From IMG/VR virus record IMGVR_UViG_2744054987_000003, positions 64,001 to 128,000 of that record: DNA of 64,000 nt, one strand, 5' to 3'. This document shows, piece after piece, positions 10,366-26,099 of this stretch. A program made the position numbers and the translations under genes. The number at the start of each line of letters is the position of its first letter. Within the stretch, counting starts at the first letter, position 1. The DNA comes from a virus (lineage: Duplodnaviria > Caudoviricetes). A model generated the notes under the pieces. It did not search any database. It was not told where the DNA came from and saw only the letters and a list, made by a program, of their open reading frames with translations.

Positions 10366-11541
10366 CTAGCGAACTGCTTCCGGTTTCAGCGAGCCGTGCT
10401 CAGAGATGTGTTTGATGATTCGTCGCCAGGCATAATCCTGCCCTCGCGCAGTCAGCTTGCCCGTTGCGTAAGCATGACCGTTCTCAGAGACGCCCTTGGG
10501 GGTTCGTGCGAGACCACGTTTCTCTGCCTGCGCGGTGGCGTGGCCAGAATCAGACCGTGCACCGCGAACGAACAGGCCGATGCGTCCAAGAAAGTCATAG
10601 ACATCCTCGTGGAGGATGCTGATGCCCTGCTCCCTGCCCCACGCCTGGACCTCCCGTGCGAACTGCTGGCGATGGATCAAAGAGTCCGAATCAGCGTGCG
10701 CTCTTGCCTTAGCCACCAGCGGTGCATCGTGCTCAATGGTTTCGGTGAGGCAGAGATTGATCGCCTCAGCGGCCTCGATCTGCTTGTCCTTCTCGGCCAA
10801 CATCTCTGCGGCATCCTGCAAAGCAAGAGCGAAGCGCTCCTCGCGAGTCTGCGGCGCAACGGCGGCAACTTCTGCTTGACGAGTGCGAACCGCAAAGTAA
10901 GTCTTTCCCGCTGCAACCTCAGGCTTCTTGCCGTCGCACGACATAACCACCATGTAGCAGGCGTACCGAGTCAGATGGACGTCAAGCACATGACGCTTGG
11001 CTCCCTTGCCTGCGCCGATCTCCTTACTGCTCTCGGTAAATTGATCCTGAGCTGCGACGATCTCGGCAGCACGCATCGCCTCAAAGATGCACCGACTGAA
11101 ATTCTGCCACTTGTCGTAGCCCAGCGGCCCCATCAGATCACGCGCCGACCAGTACTCCGTGCCGTCTTCGCGCAGTCTGCGGATGCTGTCAAAAGGAGAA
11201 CCCGCATTCGCCGTCAGTGCAAGCTCTCGTGCGACGCCCTCACATGCCGCACACCATTCGCGTGGCGACAGAGCGGAGGTCTCTCCATGACACTGCTGAC
11301 AGACAAACTCAGGCACTGCTGCCCCCTCTTGGTGAGCACGGTTCATCCGCTTGAGTCGTGCAAGTTCGTTCTTGCGAGAACGCCAGTCCGAAGGCGAAAA
11401 CGAAATGGTGCTGTGGTCGCCGGTCTCAGGATTGTGCAGTCTGATGTGTCCGTTGGCGCAGTGAGAGTCGAATTGGAATCCCAGCTTCTCGGCCTCTTGC
11501 AGGAACTCACGCAGCGGCCCTTTAATGCGTTTGGTCGTCAT
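10366..11541 (-). CDS. antirepressor (Bro-N/DinD-like plus ANT/KilAC) with N-terminal HicA-like and Zn-ribbon domains
   Basis: EYWSARDLMGPLGYDKWQNF and LTRYACY...KTYFA (Bro-N/DinD); LTARGQDY (ANT-C); N-terminal GF...GH...SPSD.R..KN..A.LKR. Confidence 0.8.
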   Translation of the reverse strand: MTTKRIKGPLREFLQEAEKLGFQFDSHCANGHIRLHNPETGDHSTISFSPSDWRSRKNELARLKRMNRAHQEGAAVPEFVCQQCHGETSALSPREWCAACEGVARELALTANAGSPFDSIRRLREDGTEYWSARDLMGPLGYDKWQNFSRCIFEAMRAAEIVAAQDQFTESSKEIGAGKGAKRHVLDVHLTRYACYMVVMSCDGKKPEVAAGKTYFAVRTRQAEVAAVAPQTREERFALALQDAAEMLAEKDKQIEAAEAINLCLTETIEHDAPLVAKARAHADSDSLIHRQQFAREVQAWGREQGISILHEDVYDFLGRIGLFVRGARSDSGHATAQAEKRGLARTPKGVSENGHAYATGKLTARGQDYAWRRIIKHISEHGSLKPEAVR

Positions 11542-15693: not shown

Positions 15694-16473
15694 CTAGATT
15701 ATCGGCCTTATCTCGCCGCGCTCGATCTCATCGACGGTGCGCCGACGCGCTTTGGGTCGGTAGTCCTCACCAGTGAACTCGAATACCAGCGACTGCTCAG
15801 ATAATTGTGACAACACCTGTGCTCCGTATCCGGTGCTCAGTTCACCCAGTGTGCAGTTGGTGGTCAAGATGGTGGGTCTGCCCTCGGCCACCCGAGTACG
15901 CAGGATCATGTCGAAGGTCGACTGCGGCAGGTTGGTGCTGGTGCGCAGCTCCCGGCCAAGATCGTCGAGCAGCAGCACCTTGCTGTACATGAATTTGTCG
16001 GCGAACCACTCTTTGCGTTCACTGCTGCGCCAAGATGCGGTGAACGCCTCAACGGCATTGGCGAAGGTGGTGGCAAAACAGGTGTAGCCGCGCTTGATCA
16101 ACTCCTTGAGAATCAAGTTGGCGACGAGAGTCTTGCCCAAACCGATGCCGCCGTGGAGCAGCAGTCCGACGCCTCGCGCGATGTAGTCGTCGTGACGTTC
16201 CAAGTATTTCAGCACGTGAGGCAGCAGTGCGGGGTCGCCTTCGTAGTCGGCCCAGTCCAGACGTTGATACGTCACACCGATGCCGGAAGCGGCATAATGC
16301 AAAGCCAGCTGAAGCTGGCGCTGACAGTTGCAGTCGCACTCGTTTCCTTGCCAGCGGTAGGTCTTGGCTCCCCGGCAGGTCGGGCAGACGCCAAGCATCA
16401 GCTCGGGATGGCTTCGATCGATGCGTTCGGCCTCATCGTCATCCAGAAAGGCCGTCTCGATGTTGAAGGTCAC
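15694..16473 (-). CDS. DnaC/IstB-like helicase loader ATPase
   Basis: N-terminal CxxC/CxC, GGIGLGKT, LLLDDLG.E, TILTTN, G.DYR. Confidence 0.9.
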   Translation of the reverse strand: MTFNIETAFLDDDEAERIDRSHPELMLGVCPTCRGAKTYRWQGNECDCNCQRQLQLALHYAASGIGVTYQRLDWADYEGDPALLPHVLKYLERHDDYIARGVGLLLHGGIGLGKTLVANLILKELIKRGYTCFATTFANAVEAFTASWRSSERKEWFADKFMYSKVLLLDDLGRELRTSTNLPQSTFDMILRTRVAEGRPTILTTNCTLGELSTGYGAQVLSQLSEQSLVFEFTGEDYRPKARRRTVDEIERGEIRPII

Positions 16474-17216
16474 ACATCTTCCTTGGTCAGAACGATAACG
16501 GCGTTCTCTAGACAGTCCCTGTTGTCGGCGAGTCCCTGAATGTGCGTGGGTTTGCCGGTGACGTTGTGCCGCAACGCGGTGTAGGCGTGGTGGTAGTGAC
16601 CGTGGTAGAGCAGATCGGGAACAACCGCATCGCAGATGCCGCCCAGCACCATGCGGTGACGTTCTGATGCGTGAATGGCTTCTATGGGGAACAGGCCCGG
16701 TTTCAGGCCGGGGATCTCCACCGCGTCAGGGCAGTCGTGGCTCAGCACGACATCGACGTCGCCAGAACGACAGCAATGACGAACATCGACACTAGACAGC
16801 TCCTCCTCGACGAACCAGTCGAGCATTGGAGTCCGCGACTTCTTGTCAACGCTGACGCCGCCGCCGACACCCATCCAGGTCTTGTTCCACCACTGCCAGC
16901 GATGGCCGCGAGGGACGTGCTGGACGTGCTTGCCCCACCTGTCGCCCGGCACCAAGGCGCTGAACTCCTCGTGGTTGCCGTCGATCCAGTAGAAGCGAAT
17001 GTCGTTACCGTCGACCAGTCGGTCAACGTCGTCCATGAATGTGCCGTCGTCGCCGGTCGGCCAGAAGCCGAAGTCTCCGAGCTGGAAGATGACGTCGACT
17101 CCCTCTGCCACGGCCTTGGCGACCACGCGCTTCAGAAAGCGGTAGTCGCGGTGTGTATCGCCGACAAGCATGAGTTTCTGCGGGTCCGGCCCCATGTCGA
17201 CACGGCATTCAGGCAT
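16470..17216 (-). CDS. calcineurin-like metallophosphoesterase
   Basis: GDTH, GDFG, GNHE, SHD and HGHYH motifs. Confidence 0.92.
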   Translation of the reverse strand: MPECRVDMGPDPQKLMLVGDTHRDYRFLKRVVAKAVAEGVDVIFQLGDFGFWPTGDDGTFMDDVDRLVDGNDIRFYWIDGNHEEFSALVPGDRWGKHVQHVPRGHRWQWWNKTWMGVGGGVSVDKKSRTPMLDWFVEEELSSVDVRHCCRSGDVDVVLSHDCPDAVEIPGLKPGLFPIEAIHASERHRMVLGGICDAVVPDLLYHGHYHHAYTALRHNVTGKPTHIQGLADNRDCLENAVIVLTKEDV

Positions 17217-17250
17217 GGCGTTAGAGACGTCCTTTGTCGTGGAGGGCTAG

Positions 17251-17541
17251 GCACTTTCAACAACTCAAGAAAACACCCAGCCAGTCTTCGGATTCCCCTA
17301 CTCTCCCCGGATCGTGGCCACTCCCCGGTTCCCCTCAAGTACTAAGTCCAACTGTTCTCCTGCTTCACTCGCGGCGGATTTCGCCCTCCACAGCCCTTCG
17401 TTCAGGGATCGCCTGATCTTCGTGCGGCTCGTCGTCCGCTGTCCCGATCAGGTCGTGGTCGTTAACCGTCAGGGGCTGCTTCGCTGGGGTACTTGCACGG
17501 TACCTCGCAGGTCTGGATGCTTTCTTGAGTTGTCAAAGTGC
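17251..17541 (-). ncRNA. candidate ~290-nt structured RNA (unassigned family)
   Basis: The 5' and 3' ends form a 29-bp stem with three G.U pairs and one bulge on the minus-strand RNA. Nested inner stems are present and a promoter lies just upstream. Confidence 0.7.
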
Positions 17542-17550
17542 GTTGACTCC

Positions 17551-17579
17551 AGTATAGCAGAGTGTCTAATGTCTGTCTA
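17551..17579 (-). promoter_or_regulatory. SigA-like promoter TAGACA-17-TATACT with extended -10
   Basis: Minus strand reads TAGACA gacat TAGACA ctc TGc TATACT. Confidence 0.75.
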
Positions 17580-17826
17580 GTGTCTGCAACTCCTTGATGC
17601 GGTGCAGACCCCATTTGCCGTTCTCCCACTTGACCCAGCAGTACCCCTCGATGACTGCTGGGCCTTCGACTACACCACGCAGGCTGCCTTCCTGTGTGTG
17701 GATGACCGTCGCGCCGTCGATGTCGGTGGTGCCCTCACCCATCGTGGGCTTGCCGTTGATCAACAGCGCCATCCACTGGCCGGTGAAGGCATCGGCGTCA
17801 ACGCAGTCAGGGTGTGTCTTGGCCAT
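17566..17826 (-). CDS. hypothetical protein
   Basis: 86-aa ORF coupled to the upstream gene. Confidence 0.7.
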   Translation of the reverse strand: MAKTHPDCVDADAFTGQWMALLINGKPTMGEGTTDIDGATVIHTQEGSLRGVVEGPAVIEGYCWVKWENGKWGLHRIKELQTLDRH

Positions 17827-18218
17827 CAGATGTCCGAGAGCTGCCCGAAGTCGAATTGCGCCTTGGCATCAGCGCAGTGGCGCTGCTGTTCGTCGTAGAG
17901 ATGCTGTTGTAGCTCACGATCCAGGATGTCGGTAAACCATTTGCGGCCCTTGGAAAAAGACATGTGGCCGATCACCTCGTTGCGGTACTGACCCTGGTGC
18001 CACACGCAGGCCCATTTAACGATCTGTCCGGCGCGACCACCGTAGGTGCGCTTGAGTCCAGCCATCACAGCACGCTCGGGGTAGCCGTCAACGGCCAGGT
18101 CGATACCTCGCAGCTGCTTGATCGCGAGCTTGAGGTAGGTCACCAGTTCAGTGTCGCTCATCGCGGTAACCGGCTTGCCGAGAGCAGCCTCGGCGGGATC
18201 GAGTTCAGCGAAGGCCAC
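17826..18218 (-). CDS. hypothetical protein
   Basis: 130-aa ORF with AGGAG RBS. Confidence 0.75.
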   Translation of the reverse strand: MAFAELDPAEAALGKPVTAMSDTELVTYLKLAIKQLRGIDLAVDGYPERAVMAGLKRTYGGRAGQIVKWACVWHQGQYRNEVIGHMSFSKGRKWFTDILDRELQQHLYDEQQRHCADAKAQFDFGQLSDI

Positions 18219-25784: not shown

Positions 25785-25858
25785 TGGCTGGGGTGTCAGG
25801 ACTCGAACCTGAATCGCCCGGACCAAAACCGGGAATCATACCTTTAGACCACGCCCCA
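25785..25858 (-). tRNA. tRNA-Gln(TTG)
   Basis: Cloverleaf; anticodon arm CCCGG-TTTTGGT-CCGGG, T arm GGTTCGAGTCC, encoded CCA. Confidence 0.93.
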
Positions 25859-25863
25859 GGGAG

Positions 25864-25934
25864 CTGGGATGCAAGGACTCGAACCTCGATTACCGGAACC
25901 AGACTCCGGTGTCTTGCCTTTAGACGACATCCCA
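25864..25934 (-). tRNA. tRNA-Gln(CTG)
   Basis: TGGGATG/CATCCCA acceptor stem, CCGGA-GTCTGGT-TCCGG anticodon arm, GGTTCGAGTCC; no CCA. Confidence 0.9.
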
Positions 25935-25938
25935 TCGG

Positions 25939-26020
25939 TGCCAGCAGCAGGAGTCGAACCTGCACAGCCGAAGCCACGGAGTTACAGTCCGCTTCCCTCG
26001 CCACATGGGGGTGTGCTGGC
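25939..26020 (-). tRNA. tRNA-Tyr(GTA)
   Basis: GCCAGCA/TGCTGGC acceptor stem, GCGGA-CTGTAAC-TCCGT anticodon arm, long variable arm, GGTTCGACTCC. Confidence 0.88.
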
Positions 26021-26024
26021 TTCG

Positions 26025-26099
26025 TCGGGGTGACAGGATTTGAACCTGCGGCCTTCCGCTCCCAAAGCGGATGCTCTTGCCAAGCTGAGCTACACCCCG
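26025..26099 (-). tRNA. tRNA-Pro(TGG)
   Basis: CGGGGTG/CACCCCG acceptor stem, TCCGC-TTTGGGA-GCGGA anticodon arm, GGTTCAAATCC. Confidence 0.95.

Follow-up and report, generated by a model that had tools for sequence, protein, structure and literature searches.

A structured RNA element at the head of a phage replication operon belongs to a widespread, apparently unnamed RNA family

Results

Locus, promoter and operon context

The window analyzed here, a 64,000-nucleotide stretch of a large mycobacteriophage-like genome, carries at 17251-17541 on the minus strand a structured RNA gene of roughly 290 bases, which lies inside an ORF-free gap bordered by the ORFs 17566-17826(-) and 16470-17216(-). 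Directly upstream is a sigma-70-type promoter-like site (17551..17579, minus strand), composed of a -35 element TAGACA (17579-17574), a 17-nt spacer and a -10 element TATACT (17556-17551) that is preceded by TG, with 10 of 12 matches to the consensus and its end 9 nt from the 5' arm of the closing stem P1. This promoter had been proposed in an earlier note on the same DNA and was confirmed as the only such site in 16900-18000, where shuffled sequences gave a mean of 0.3. In the family described below, 19 of 50 distinct elements have TANNNT somewhere from -45 to +6 relative to the start of P1, compared with 10.8% of background windows.

On the other side, the link to the next gene (17214..17250, minus strand) is 34 nt long and includes an AAAGGA ribosome-binding site; it leads to the ATG (17216), which opens a metallophosphoesterase gene, and no terminator-like site was found on the RNA strand of this link region. 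The operon continues with genes for a DnaC-like loader, DnaB, primase and SSB, and the replication genes extend to a Pol III alpha ORF, such that the earlier claim of an element heading the replication operon is borne out in this phage by the identities of the downstream genes. In cluster C1 as in the window, the RNA passes directly into the ribosome-binding site and ORF, with a gap of about 35 nt to the ribosome-binding site, and given this direct run the role of the RNA may be purely in cis.

A long closing stem with variable, covarying arms

P1 is formed by a leader-like 5' arm (17513..17541, minus strand) and a trailer-like 3' arm (17251..17280, minus strand), both identified by direct reading, RNAfold and a family pairing test. 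The 5' arm, read from 17541 to 17513 (GCACUUUGACAACUCAAGAAAGCAUCCAG), pairs with 17280-17251 over 29 bp (7 + 22); a single G bulges from the 3' arm, three of the pairs are G.U and there are no other mismatches, exactly as had been described before, including the observation that all three mismatches at the DNA level are G.U pairs on the minus strand. RNAfold of 17240-17550(-) recovered P1 in the minimum free energy structure, whose energy of -122.2 kcal/mol compares with -102.6 +/- 4.8 kcal/mol for 100 shuffles (z = -4.08, 0 of 100 as stable). In a register-anchored test of 62 unselected family members, standard pairs made up 65-87% at 21 of 22 positions and a fraction of 0.48 at the remaining one, with 4-6 pair types at each position, and slid registers in the same members mostly gave 0.1-0.6. 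The length of P1 ranges from 22 to 41 bp across the family, and its arms, while covarying, are the most variable part of the element.

The G.U pairs had previously been taken to point to selection on the RNA. A bias towards G.U over A.C was indeed seen (86 versus 34, by a detection that itself favours G.U), but the family-wide excess under strand-symmetric detection was 41 versus 26 and not significant (p = 0.086), and the G.U excess in P1 is at most suggestive of RNA-level rather than DNA-level selection.

The 5' domain and its invariant junction strands

Covariation supports a fold in which P1, a 5' domain (P2-P6) and a 3' domain (P7-P9-P8) meet in a three-way junction. The 5' domain (17354..17514, minus strand) comprises P2 (17511-17507/17363-17359), P3 (17502-17496/17373-17366, with a bulged A), P4 (17488-17486/17386-17384), P5 (17479-17473/17396-17390) and the P6 hairpin (17452-17412). 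Its model, R1, has one match only in the window (127.2 bits, E = 8.5e-28). Of 100 loci searched with it, 98 were matched, and the remaining two are chance coding hits. Paired cells amount to 88.7% in alignment A2, versus 61.3% in shuffles, with 26 of 29 pairs changing on both sides, and to 89.1% in alignment A3 (101 sequences), versus 59.7% in shuffles; values as high were reached in 0 of 500 shuffles, and slid registers gave 30-50%. The covariation among homologues that had been named earlier as a check is thus strong in about 100 homologues, and is found in both domains and in P1. It supports two of the inner stems originally read from the single sequence, CAGCCC/GGGCUG (P5) and CCUGAUC/GAUCAGG (P6). 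A third, GCGG/CCGC, appears at the tip of the length-variable P6 hairpin in the single-sequence fold and was seen nowhere else, and the fourth, CAAGUAC/GUACUUG, lies outside the covariation-supported model; it would bridge the junction to link the 5' and 3' domains.

Two nearly invariant junction strands stand out in this domain, namely CUGACGGUUAACGACCACGAC between P5 and P6 (17452..17472, minus strand), the 21-nt core motif by which the family was collected as an exact pattern with one N and whose columns are invariant in A2, and GCGAUCCCUGAACGAA between P6 and P5 (17397..17412, minus strand), whose columns are invariant or nearly so in A2. The P6 hairpin between them varies in length, with a spacing of 13-200 nt among 96 distinct members, and the RNA as a whole has about 37 invariant unpaired bases. 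Such extreme conservation of unpaired junction bases within covarying helices, together with a position upstream of an ORF in mycobacteriophages, could also be that of a riboswitch-like sensor in which the invariant strands form a ligand pocket controlling the downstream genes. We consider this highly improbable, as no regulated gene family recurs, neither an alternative terminator nor a sequestering helix was seen, the 22-41 bp of P1 close the aptamer-like part and leave no expression platform, and there was no match to an Rfam riboswitch.

The 3' domain and a palindromic loop

The 3' domain (17282..17354, minus strand) consists of P7 (17354-17350/17286-17282), P9 (17339-17337/17298-17296), a conserved internal loop and P8 (17328-17324/17311-17307), of which P9 is weak in the window member, with one C-G and two U.G pairs. 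An initial P7a plus P9 arrangement for the window was not borne out, and the model was redrawn from single-sequence folds and a chosen seed, for which 18 of 40 sequences were picked by hand for consistent single-sequence folds. In the resulting R2-based alignment A6 (65 matches), which is fitted to the model, 85.8% of cells are paired versus 61.3% in shuffles, with a covariation of 0.50 versus 0.13; in the raw MAFFT alignment the signal is weak (53.6% versus 44.5% paired).

At the tip of P8, between GGA and GAU, lies the loop GUGGCCAC (17314..17321, minus strand), recognized by its self-complementarity across the family. Of 252 cells in this loop, 99.6% are self-complementary, and its central adjacent pair is GC in 37, CG in 25 and UG in 1, which is compensatory change. 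The palindrome, 8 nt long in the window and 6-12 nt among the variants (GUGCGCAC, GUGGCCAC, GGUGCACC, GCGGCCGC, GCUGCAGC, GUUGCAAC and GAGCGCUC), thus changes in sequence while keeping its palindromic form, down to the two bases at the centre, which argues for pairing in trans. From these sequences, a kissing homodimer is the most likely form of such pairing, and the self-duplex of the loop 12-mer has a calculated energy of -17.3 kcal/mol. The variants with a 12-nt palindrome could also fold on themselves as 4 bp plus a tetraloop, and palindromy would likewise be kept if a dimeric protein bound this site in the DNA.

Family distribution and neighbouring genes

Searches with the 21-nt core motif gave 29 stretches from viruses, 98 from metagenomes and 1 from a genome, and also about 206 cluster-C mycobacteriophages. 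The motif is in 133 loci, of which 104 are distinct in sequence. The 54 complete members are 242-427 nt long, and a genome carries either one copy or two in tandem; a single copy is present in the genome of this phage (G000) and in each of four other large phage genomes. The element is absent from Phrappuccino, the nearest cultured relative, and at the DNA level this phage resembles cluster C in the element only. Among species genomes the exact motif had 1 match, and a search of 151 genomes with R1 also gave 1 match, on a contig that duplicates one from a virus. That contig, part of a metagenome-assembled genome, is the sole find outside virus-like DNA.

No conserved partner gene emerged: tblastn of nine proteins flanking the element in the window against the 133 loci matched only the same phage (L004, L087) and produced one chance match, and clustering of ORFs across loci gave no common neighbour family, the largest clusters being antisense ORFs over the element itself. 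At three loci a tmRNA gene and at one a tRNA gene lies downstream, rather than a protein operon, and in Myrna a second promoter-like site is located between the element and the next gene. Since neighbouring genes are not conserved, the element is better described as a stand-alone RNA gene than as a fixed leader. What the earlier note had read as a single element is hence extended to a large family with varying neighbours and a covarying palindromic loop.

The patchy distribution, with its absence from Phrappuccino, would fit a DNA-level element, be it a miniature inverted-repeat mobile element, a cruciform, an origin or the operator site of a dimeric protein, as would the long inverted repeat, the palindromic loop and the confinement of DNA similarity with cluster C to the element. 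This explanation is nevertheless very improbable. The arms are the most variable, covarying part of the element, whereas ends bound by a transposase would be conserved, no transposase gene is found nearby, and each of the five genomes named above has a single copy. In addition, covariation is seen in six further short helices that surround unpaired, conserved strands, and U.G is the dominant form at two pairs.

Relation to known RNA families

The claim that this structured RNA has no recognized family withstood a search of the whole window with Rfam 15 (4227 models), which returned 4 tRNAs only, with no match at gathering score in the element. For 17150-17650 at E <= 10, Rfam gave two chance-level matches far below the cut-offs, neither of them to 6S RNA; for 16 homologous loci it gave one tmRNA and one tRNA, both outside the elements, and ARAGORN called no tRNA or tmRNA within the elements of 60 loci. 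Readings of the conserved strands as RNase P, Y RNA, a group I intron or a hammerhead-like motif were considered by eye and dropped, there being no Rfam match to any of them.

The earlier note had also raised a 6S/Ms1-like RNA polymerase decoy, for which the long stem closing the RNA, a size close to Ms1 and the phage context would speak. That reading, which we think has only a slim chance of being right, found no support: 6S RNA was not matched, and in the fold two irregular arms meet P1 at a three-way junction, rather than forming a stem, a large central bubble and a stem that mimic an open promoter; in addition, 6S RNAs are not known for the strong sequence invariance seen here.

A literature search, including one with the motif as a text string, found no description of this RNA. 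The text available for PMC6582537 deals with the host Ms1 only. An automatic catalogue compiled from viral contigs (PMC10690425) has 10,006 unnamed candidates for structured RNAs; its main text, as available, mentions neither boxA nor dimers and has Mycobacterium in one reference title only, and part of the element may be listed among its supplementary models. The element is as such a member of a widespread, apparently unnamed family of structured phage RNAs.

Strand, coding potential and expression

The promoter-like site and the boxA-like motif described below share one orientation. At two positions of P3, U.G is the commonest pair (51 and 44 sequences, with C-G in 20 and 27), and since these would be C.A mismatches on the opposite strand, this argues that the RNA is made from the minus strand.

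Many cluster C1 records carry CDS features over the homologous stretch, such as genes 61 and 62 of Trinitium (hypothetical proteins), which would make the region protein-coding. We give this reading almost no credence: the invariant 21-mer has stops in two of three sense frames by direct reading, none of the 54 elements has a sense-strand frame that stays open from end to end, the insert between the junction strands shows no period of 3 (26/38/32 among 96 distinct members), and the substitutions take the form of compensatory pairing. The CDS calls over the element in many deposited phage genomes are therefore probably wrong.

A search of sequencing runs with a cluster C1 homologue (L003:150-950) found three runs from two studies, one recorded as RNA-Seq and two guessed to be RNA. 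Each contributed one contig (261, 276 and 173 nt), identical to the stretch except for a 1-nt insertion in one of them, and all lie within the element. Contigs of this kind reveal neither transcription nor its ends or level, and the material may include DNA, so they are at best a hint of expression; that the flanks are uncovered carries no weight.

A boxA-like motif and resemblance to rRNA leaders

Inside the 5' arm of P1 lies a boxA-like motif, UUUGACAACUCAA (17525..17537, minus strand), identified by its occurrence in the family and in actinobacterial 16S leaders. Of 97 distinct members, 33 have the strict boxA-like 8-mer, placed at -60..-66 relative to the core motif; the background rate is 0.012 per 80 nt. 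The same motif (YUUGA[ACG]AACU..AA), which we take to be the NusB/NusE site, occurs once per 16S leader in 12 of 13 actinobacterial loci, and in 7 of 11 actinobacterial rrn loci it lies within the leader-trailer helix, paired to the trailer in the way the phage 5' arm is paired to its 3' arm. Thus, the resemblance to a boxA-bearing rrn leader stem, which the earlier note had drawn, holds in the actinobacterial loci checked. Judged from the sequences, the likeness of P1 to the rrn leader-trailer helix is one of apparent working and not of homology. Leader-trailer helices and boxA are ascribed a role in rRNA biogenesis in the available text of PMC10250234.

The likeness did not extend to the interior. 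As candidate rRNA mimics, the 5'- and 3'-domain profiles (A3, A6) were searched with nhmmer against 13 rrn loci, with a best E of 2.1, and pairing of the invariant strands with host rRNA was likewise rejected, with duplex energies against 16S-spacer-23S of three genomes resembling those of shuffles (0.10-0.94 of shuffles as good).

A boxA-like motif that is transcribed first, in a promoter-proximal position, would suit a purely cis-acting processive antitermination leader of the lambda nut, HK022 put or Bacillus EAR type, in which the RNA stays with its own polymerase and ensures read-through of the operon. The long downstream operon, reaching the Pol III alpha ORF, and the short link without a terminator-like site in the window and cluster C1 are in line with such a role. 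However, 64 of the 97 members lack the 8-mer, which can therefore not be the core function of the RNA, and the covarying palindromic loop and the roughly 37 invariant unpaired bases would be superfluous for a boxA leader. The downstream genes are moreover unrelated among members, including the tmRNA and tRNA genes mentioned above, and Myrna has its second promoter-like site. On balance, we find an antitermination leader of this kind unlikely, if still deserving of attention.

Discussion

The explanation we favour, and hold to be fairly probable, is that the element is a stand-alone gene for a widespread, unnamed phage RNA whose closing stem imitates a pre-rRNA stem and which probably pairs with another copy of the same RNA and acts in trans. 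The gene would be transcribed from its own sigma-A-type promoter, and P1 would imitate the boxA-bearing leader-trailer helix of the host pre-16S rRNA. From this imitation we infer that the long untranslated transcript would be made by a Nus-modified, Rho-resistant RNA polymerase, that the RNA would fold inside the P1 clamp, and that RNase III would then cut the element out, a cut that would also release the downstream replication-operon mRNA. Excision by RNase III and Nus-dependent antitermination are both reasonable inferences from the likeness to rrn, although the boxA-like 8-mer is limited to 33 of 97 members. Two molecules would subsequently join via their palindromic loops into a symmetric kissing dimer, and the dimer might act in trans, its invariant strands binding a conserved host or phage partner.

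Here we speculate further, and only tentatively, that this is a new class of phage RNA which exploits the machinery by which the host makes its rRNA. By taking on the promoter, boxA and leader-trailer helix of a pre-rRNA in miniature, the RNA would be transcribed Rho-resistantly, chaperoned and cut by RNase III. It would then form a protein-free symmetric dimer or a larger RNA-only particle, whose roughly 37 exposed invariant bases might, during infection, trap a factor that is universally conserved in actinobacteria.

If the favoured explanation is true, a new, abundant class would be added to the few large structured RNAs of phages. The cultured phages that carry it, about 200 cluster-C mycobacteriophages, can be grown on a laboratory strain of M. 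smegmatis, unlike the carriers of other such RNAs, and genetics and biochemistry are hence immediately possible. A copied host pre-rRNA stem would suggest a safe route by which phages make long untranslated RNAs, and the covarying palindromic loop offers a clean, testable prediction of RNA-RNA self-assembly.

Several known systems share single traits with the element. As in the pre-16S rRNA leader-trailer helix, the flanks come together in a long helix around a structured RNA, with a common motif in the 5' strand and a promoter directly upstream; the phage-encoded element differs in that the enclosed RNA, of about 230 nt, is unrelated, in that mRNA follows the element, and in that the motif is found in only one third of the family. 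The lambda nut, HK022 put and EAR elements are processive antitermination RNAs, and nut has a boxA; like them, the element is promoter-proximal phage RNA, with a boxA-like sequence as in nut, but it is far larger and has a conserved core, a palindromic loop and non-conserved downstream genes, with no boxB-like partner identified. With 6S/Ms1 it has in common the size range and a long stem joining the ends, whereas the phage element is branched, highly invariant in sequence and confined to phages. The packaging RNA of phi29 likewise has paired ends and a three-way junction, together with loop-loop intermolecular pairing like that predicted here, but its loops join head to tail and are non-palindromic, and the two RNAs are not alike in sequence. 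The element is carried by large myovirus-like phages, which presumably have ordinary packaging genes.

The retroviral dimerisation initiation site is a kissing loop with a 6-nt palindrome and purine flanks whose natural variants stay palindromic. Both are hairpin loops with a self-complementary stretch between purine flanks, although the molecules are unrelated and the phage palindrome has 8 nt (6-12 in the family). Finally, OLE, ROOL and GOLLD are large ornate bacterial and phage RNAs that form RNA-only homo-oligomers, as described in the available text of PMC12286853. The phage element has no Rfam match to them, is smaller (242-427 nt), occurs in high-G+C phages and has a closing helix like that of pre-rRNA, with one predicted trans contact; homo-oligomers are known for those RNAs and are predicted for this one. 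What the two share is a structured, non-coding, phage-linked RNA, for which the present family contributes covariation evidence of an intermolecular kissing contact.

Genomic setting and closing stem

Conserved, strand-specific, non-coding and structured, the element at 17251-17541 (minus strand) combines three modules that covary, a loop complementary to itself and a closing helix like that of rrn. In the sequence of 17100-17750, the arms of this helix (P1; 17541-17513 and 17280-17251, minus strand) form 7 + 22 bp with one bulged G, and G.U accounts for all three pairs that are not Watson-Crick, as the earlier note had claimed for a 29-bp stem. RNAfold, one of the checks it had proposed, retained P1 in 17240-17550 (minus strand) at -122.2 kcal/mol; 100 dinucleotide-shuffled versions averaged -102.6 +/- 4.8, none of them as stable (z = -4.08). 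The claimed promoter is likewise present as a promoter-like sequence, TAGACA-17-TATACT with TG ahead of the -10, at 17579-17551 (minus strand), the sole such site across 16900-18000. An 86-aa ORF (17566-17826) and a 248-aa ORF starting at 17216 border the gap.

The proposed place at the head of a replication operon also holds, as metallophosphoesterase, DnaC-like loader, DnaB-like helicase, primase and SSB genes follow on the same strand; DUF7242, DUF7229 and phrog_2799 proteins are encoded upstream. By its DnaB, the window is closest among cultured phages to mycobacteriophage Phrappuccino (64% aa), followed by cluster C1 phages (43%). In both the window and C1 phages a ribosome-binding site and ATG occur within about 35 nt after the 3' arm.

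Other features of the region were noted. The link at 17217-17250 resembles that of Trinitium (L002 2916-2950; ..CCAC.GA.AAAGGA..), despite different downstream proteins in the window and C1 phages. Rfam places a four-tRNA gene cluster at 25788-26099 on the element's own (minus) strand, ~8 kb upstream of it, and an Ant/Bro-N antirepressor-like protein is encoded at 10366-11541 (minus strand) within the replication gene string. The virus record is a provirus by its source's classification.

A phage-borne family without a fixed neighbour

Of 50,697 phage records searched by blastn with the gap, 203 matched, all of them Bxz1-type Mycobacterium or Mycolicibacterium phages and all within the element alone; megablast with the 8-kb flanks recovered none of those 203. 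The homologous stretch occupies the gp65/gp66 gap of Bxz1, lies within a 700-nt gap in Myrna, and is also found in Trinitium and Tonenili; the alignment of the window with Trinitium consists of identity blocks with insertions of tens of bases between them. Scanning three collections with the 21-nt block between P5 and P6, one position left free, yielded 29 viral, 1 genome and 98 metagenome stretches, and the family set comprised in all 133 loci, 104 of them distinct. A 33-nt query matched 207 cultured-phage records, namely 206 mycobacteriophages and, by chance, the tape-measure gene of one Rhodococcus phage.

The covariance model of the 5' domain (R1) detected a single copy in the window, at 17354-17514 with 127 bits, and likewise a single one in the 147.5-kb virus record that includes it (G000). 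Searched against 100 of the 104 distinct loci, R1 gave 101 matches in 98; in the other two (L056, L079) the motif sits in apparent coding regions. Three loci carry a second copy (L064 4934-5414, L074 2153-2636 and L096 1-1701, all minus strand); L064 and L074 each have two complete copies arranged in tandem, with an identical palindrome in both. Single copies occur in Myrna and in each of three near-complete viral genomes of 147-167 kb. R1 matched none of 150 other genomes of the cellular record's phylum (a tally including two unpublished genomes), the sole match among its cellular genomes being a contig (in G001) that repeats a viral contig.

None of nine window flank proteins recurs beside other family loci, and no neighbour family is shared among loci beyond close relatives. 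Phrappuccino (L156 1-6501) keeps the flanking synteny without the gap, from DUF7242-like gp104 to DnaC-like gp112 and helicase gp113, tightly packed, and R1 matches nowhere in its 136-kb record. Thus, the RNA is an accessory gene, gained or lost, and the element is phage-borne without a fixed neighbour.

A TANNNT sequence closely precedes P1 in 19 of 50 elements, compared with 10.8% of control windows. Myrna has a further promoter-like site, TTGCAC-17-TAGAAT, between the element and the next gene (within L006 2880-3160), where ~250 nt of extra non-coding sequence precede gp9. A long insertion in Myrna-type members also contains a second palindrome, GUCAUGAC.

Covariation supports a three-way junction

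A search of the motif's surroundings for the best-pairing long-range stem gave 54 complete elements of 242-427 nt, closed by 20-41 pairs of freely different sequence. Helices P2, P3, P4, P5 and P6 were derived from a covarying-column scan of 25 short members. In a plain MAFFT alignment of these 25 5' domains (A2; 29 pairs assessed), 88.7% of cells held standard pairs (61.3% shuffled), both sides changed at 26/29 pairs, and the covariation score of 0.725 (versus 0.208) was reached by 0/500 shuffles; slid registers were 35-43% paired. The R1-fitted alignment (A3) was 89.1% paired over 2680 cells, versus 59.7% shuffled. Here U.G led at two positions of P3, in 51 and 44 sequences against 20 and 27 with C-G, and since these would be C.A on the opposite strand, they favour an RNA read in the element's orientation.

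For the 3' domain, a first drawing on the raw MAFFT alignment was weakly supported (53.6% vs 44.5%). Single-sequence folds of 40 members mostly gave one irregular hairpin, in which an outer helix and an internal loop lead to a 3-bp helix and then, past a 7/7 internal loop, to a 5-bp helix with its loop. A seed of 18 of these 40, picked for equal spacing (A5), was 85.3% paired versus 60.8%, and the model built from it (R2) found 65 matches; their alignment (A6, 13 pairs) reached 85.8% vs 61.3% with covariation of 0.50 vs 0.13, values that derive from a selected seed and an alignment leaning towards R2. For P1, the 62 elements with both R1 and R2 matches were paired gaplessly outward from the junction, with arms unchosen: 21 of 22 steps showed 65-87% standard pairs (0.48 at the remaining step) and 4-6 pair types each, and slid registers mostly gave 0.1-0.6. 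The covariation among homologues that the earlier note had named as a test is present in both domains, with P1 in register across 62 elements.

Because P1 and the two domains pair in this way, the fold is a three-way junction of P1, the 5' arm and the 3' arm; forcing it on the window costs ~11 kcal/mol (-105.2 vs -115.9 unconstrained). Rfam contained no family matching the window or 16 homologous loci, in keeping with the earlier claim that no known family applies. That claim's companion, a 6S/Ms1-like decoy, is weak given this lack of an Rfam match and the covarying three-way junction.

Invariant strands and coding potential

In A2, the 21 bases between P5 and P6 and the 16 between P6 and P5 are invariant or nearly so, suggesting that they might bind something conserved; a riboswitch reading is weak. 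Across 96 distinct members the P6 hairpin between them spans 13-200 nt, its lengths divided 26/38/32 among the residues modulo 3, and none of 54 elements has a sense frame open throughout. This pattern is non-coding, and it leaves the coding reading weak. Many C1 records, including those of Trinitium (L002 2562-3181) and Bxz1 (L001 2792-3181), annotate CDSs for hypothetical proteins across the RNA or have the next gene begin within its 3' arm. Beyond the 3' arm comes a later ATG preceded by a GGAGG site, and the deposited calls are probably wrong.

A self-complementary loop

In P8 the loop consists of G-G-A, then eight bases, then G-A-(U/A). Those eight differ between members and remain self-complementary (GUGCGCAC, GUGGCCAC, GGUGCACC, GCGGCCGC, GCUGCAGC, GUUGCAAC, GAGCGCUC), and 6- and 12-nt palindromes also occur. 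With the loop scored as four 'pairs' in A6, standard pairs filled 99.6% of 252 cells versus 70.9% shuffled, both sides changed at all four, and the central adjacent bases were GC in 37, CG in 25 and UG in 1. A hairpin cannot pair its own bases when they are adjacent or only two apart, and therefore the constraint would be on pairing with a second identical loop. We infer that the element may form a kissing homodimer through P8, for which the 12-mer self-duplex is worth about -17 kcal/mol; contact between the copies is possible at the three two-copy loci. The palindrome could alternatively be a DNA site for a dimeric protein, yet this leaves unexplained why both half-sites change jointly beside a hairpin that covaries as RNA, and we regard a DNA element as a weak reading.

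Resemblance to rRNA leaders

Among 16S loci from the phylum of the one cellular record with the element, unpublished genomes being left out, a single YUUGA[ACG]AACU..AA motif lies 60-253 nt ahead of the gene in 12 of 13 with 600 nt upstream, and recurs in the 16S-23S spacer. Of 97 distinct members, 33 carry the strict 8-mer in the 5' arm of P1, with constant spacing to the core (background 0.012 per 80 nt), bearing out the rrn-leader likeness that the earlier note had put forward. We take the actinobacterial leader motif to be the NusB/NusE site (boxA). Mycobacteriophage members and one rrn locus (L137) have ..AACUCAA.., and most other members and rrn loci ..AACUGAA.., a split in sequence that hints at host matching. 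The motif, together with its surroundings, is almost perfectly paired with sequence beyond the 16S gene in 7 of 11 rrn loci, forming the leader-trailer helix that PMC10250234 describes for E. coli. P1 matches this helix in layout, with a promoter, the motif on the 5' side, and a long helix around a structured RNA. Same-strand tmRNA genes lie ~0.4-0.9 kb downstream in 3 of 60 loci, which are distinct and metagenomic or viral (L014 10221-10616, L026 284-609, L052 1049-1394, minus strand), and a tRNA gene ~0.1 kb away in one (L108 629-712, plus strand). These fit a stable-RNA transcription unit under an rrn-like stem, in only 4/60 loci.

Proposed role and known systems

We propose that the RNA would be transcribed from its own promoter, that P1 and the leader motif would borrow the host rRNA transcription and processing machinery, that RNase III would cut it away from the downstream message, and that it would dimerise, its invariant strands binding a conserved something. 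An antiterminator acting only in cis is a serious rival to this released RNA. Three short contigs inside the C1 homologue, from three runs, only one of them on record as RNA-Seq, in two studies, give a thin hint of transcription.

The literature searched, motif string included, held no description of the RNA; an automatically compiled catalogue (PMC10690425) of 10,006 viral candidates without names may include it. Its nearest analogues, functional and not homologous, comprise the self-assembling ornate RNAs (PMC12286853). The pre-rRNA leader-trailer helix belongs among them on the same functional, non-homologous footing. So do the kissing loops of retroviruses.
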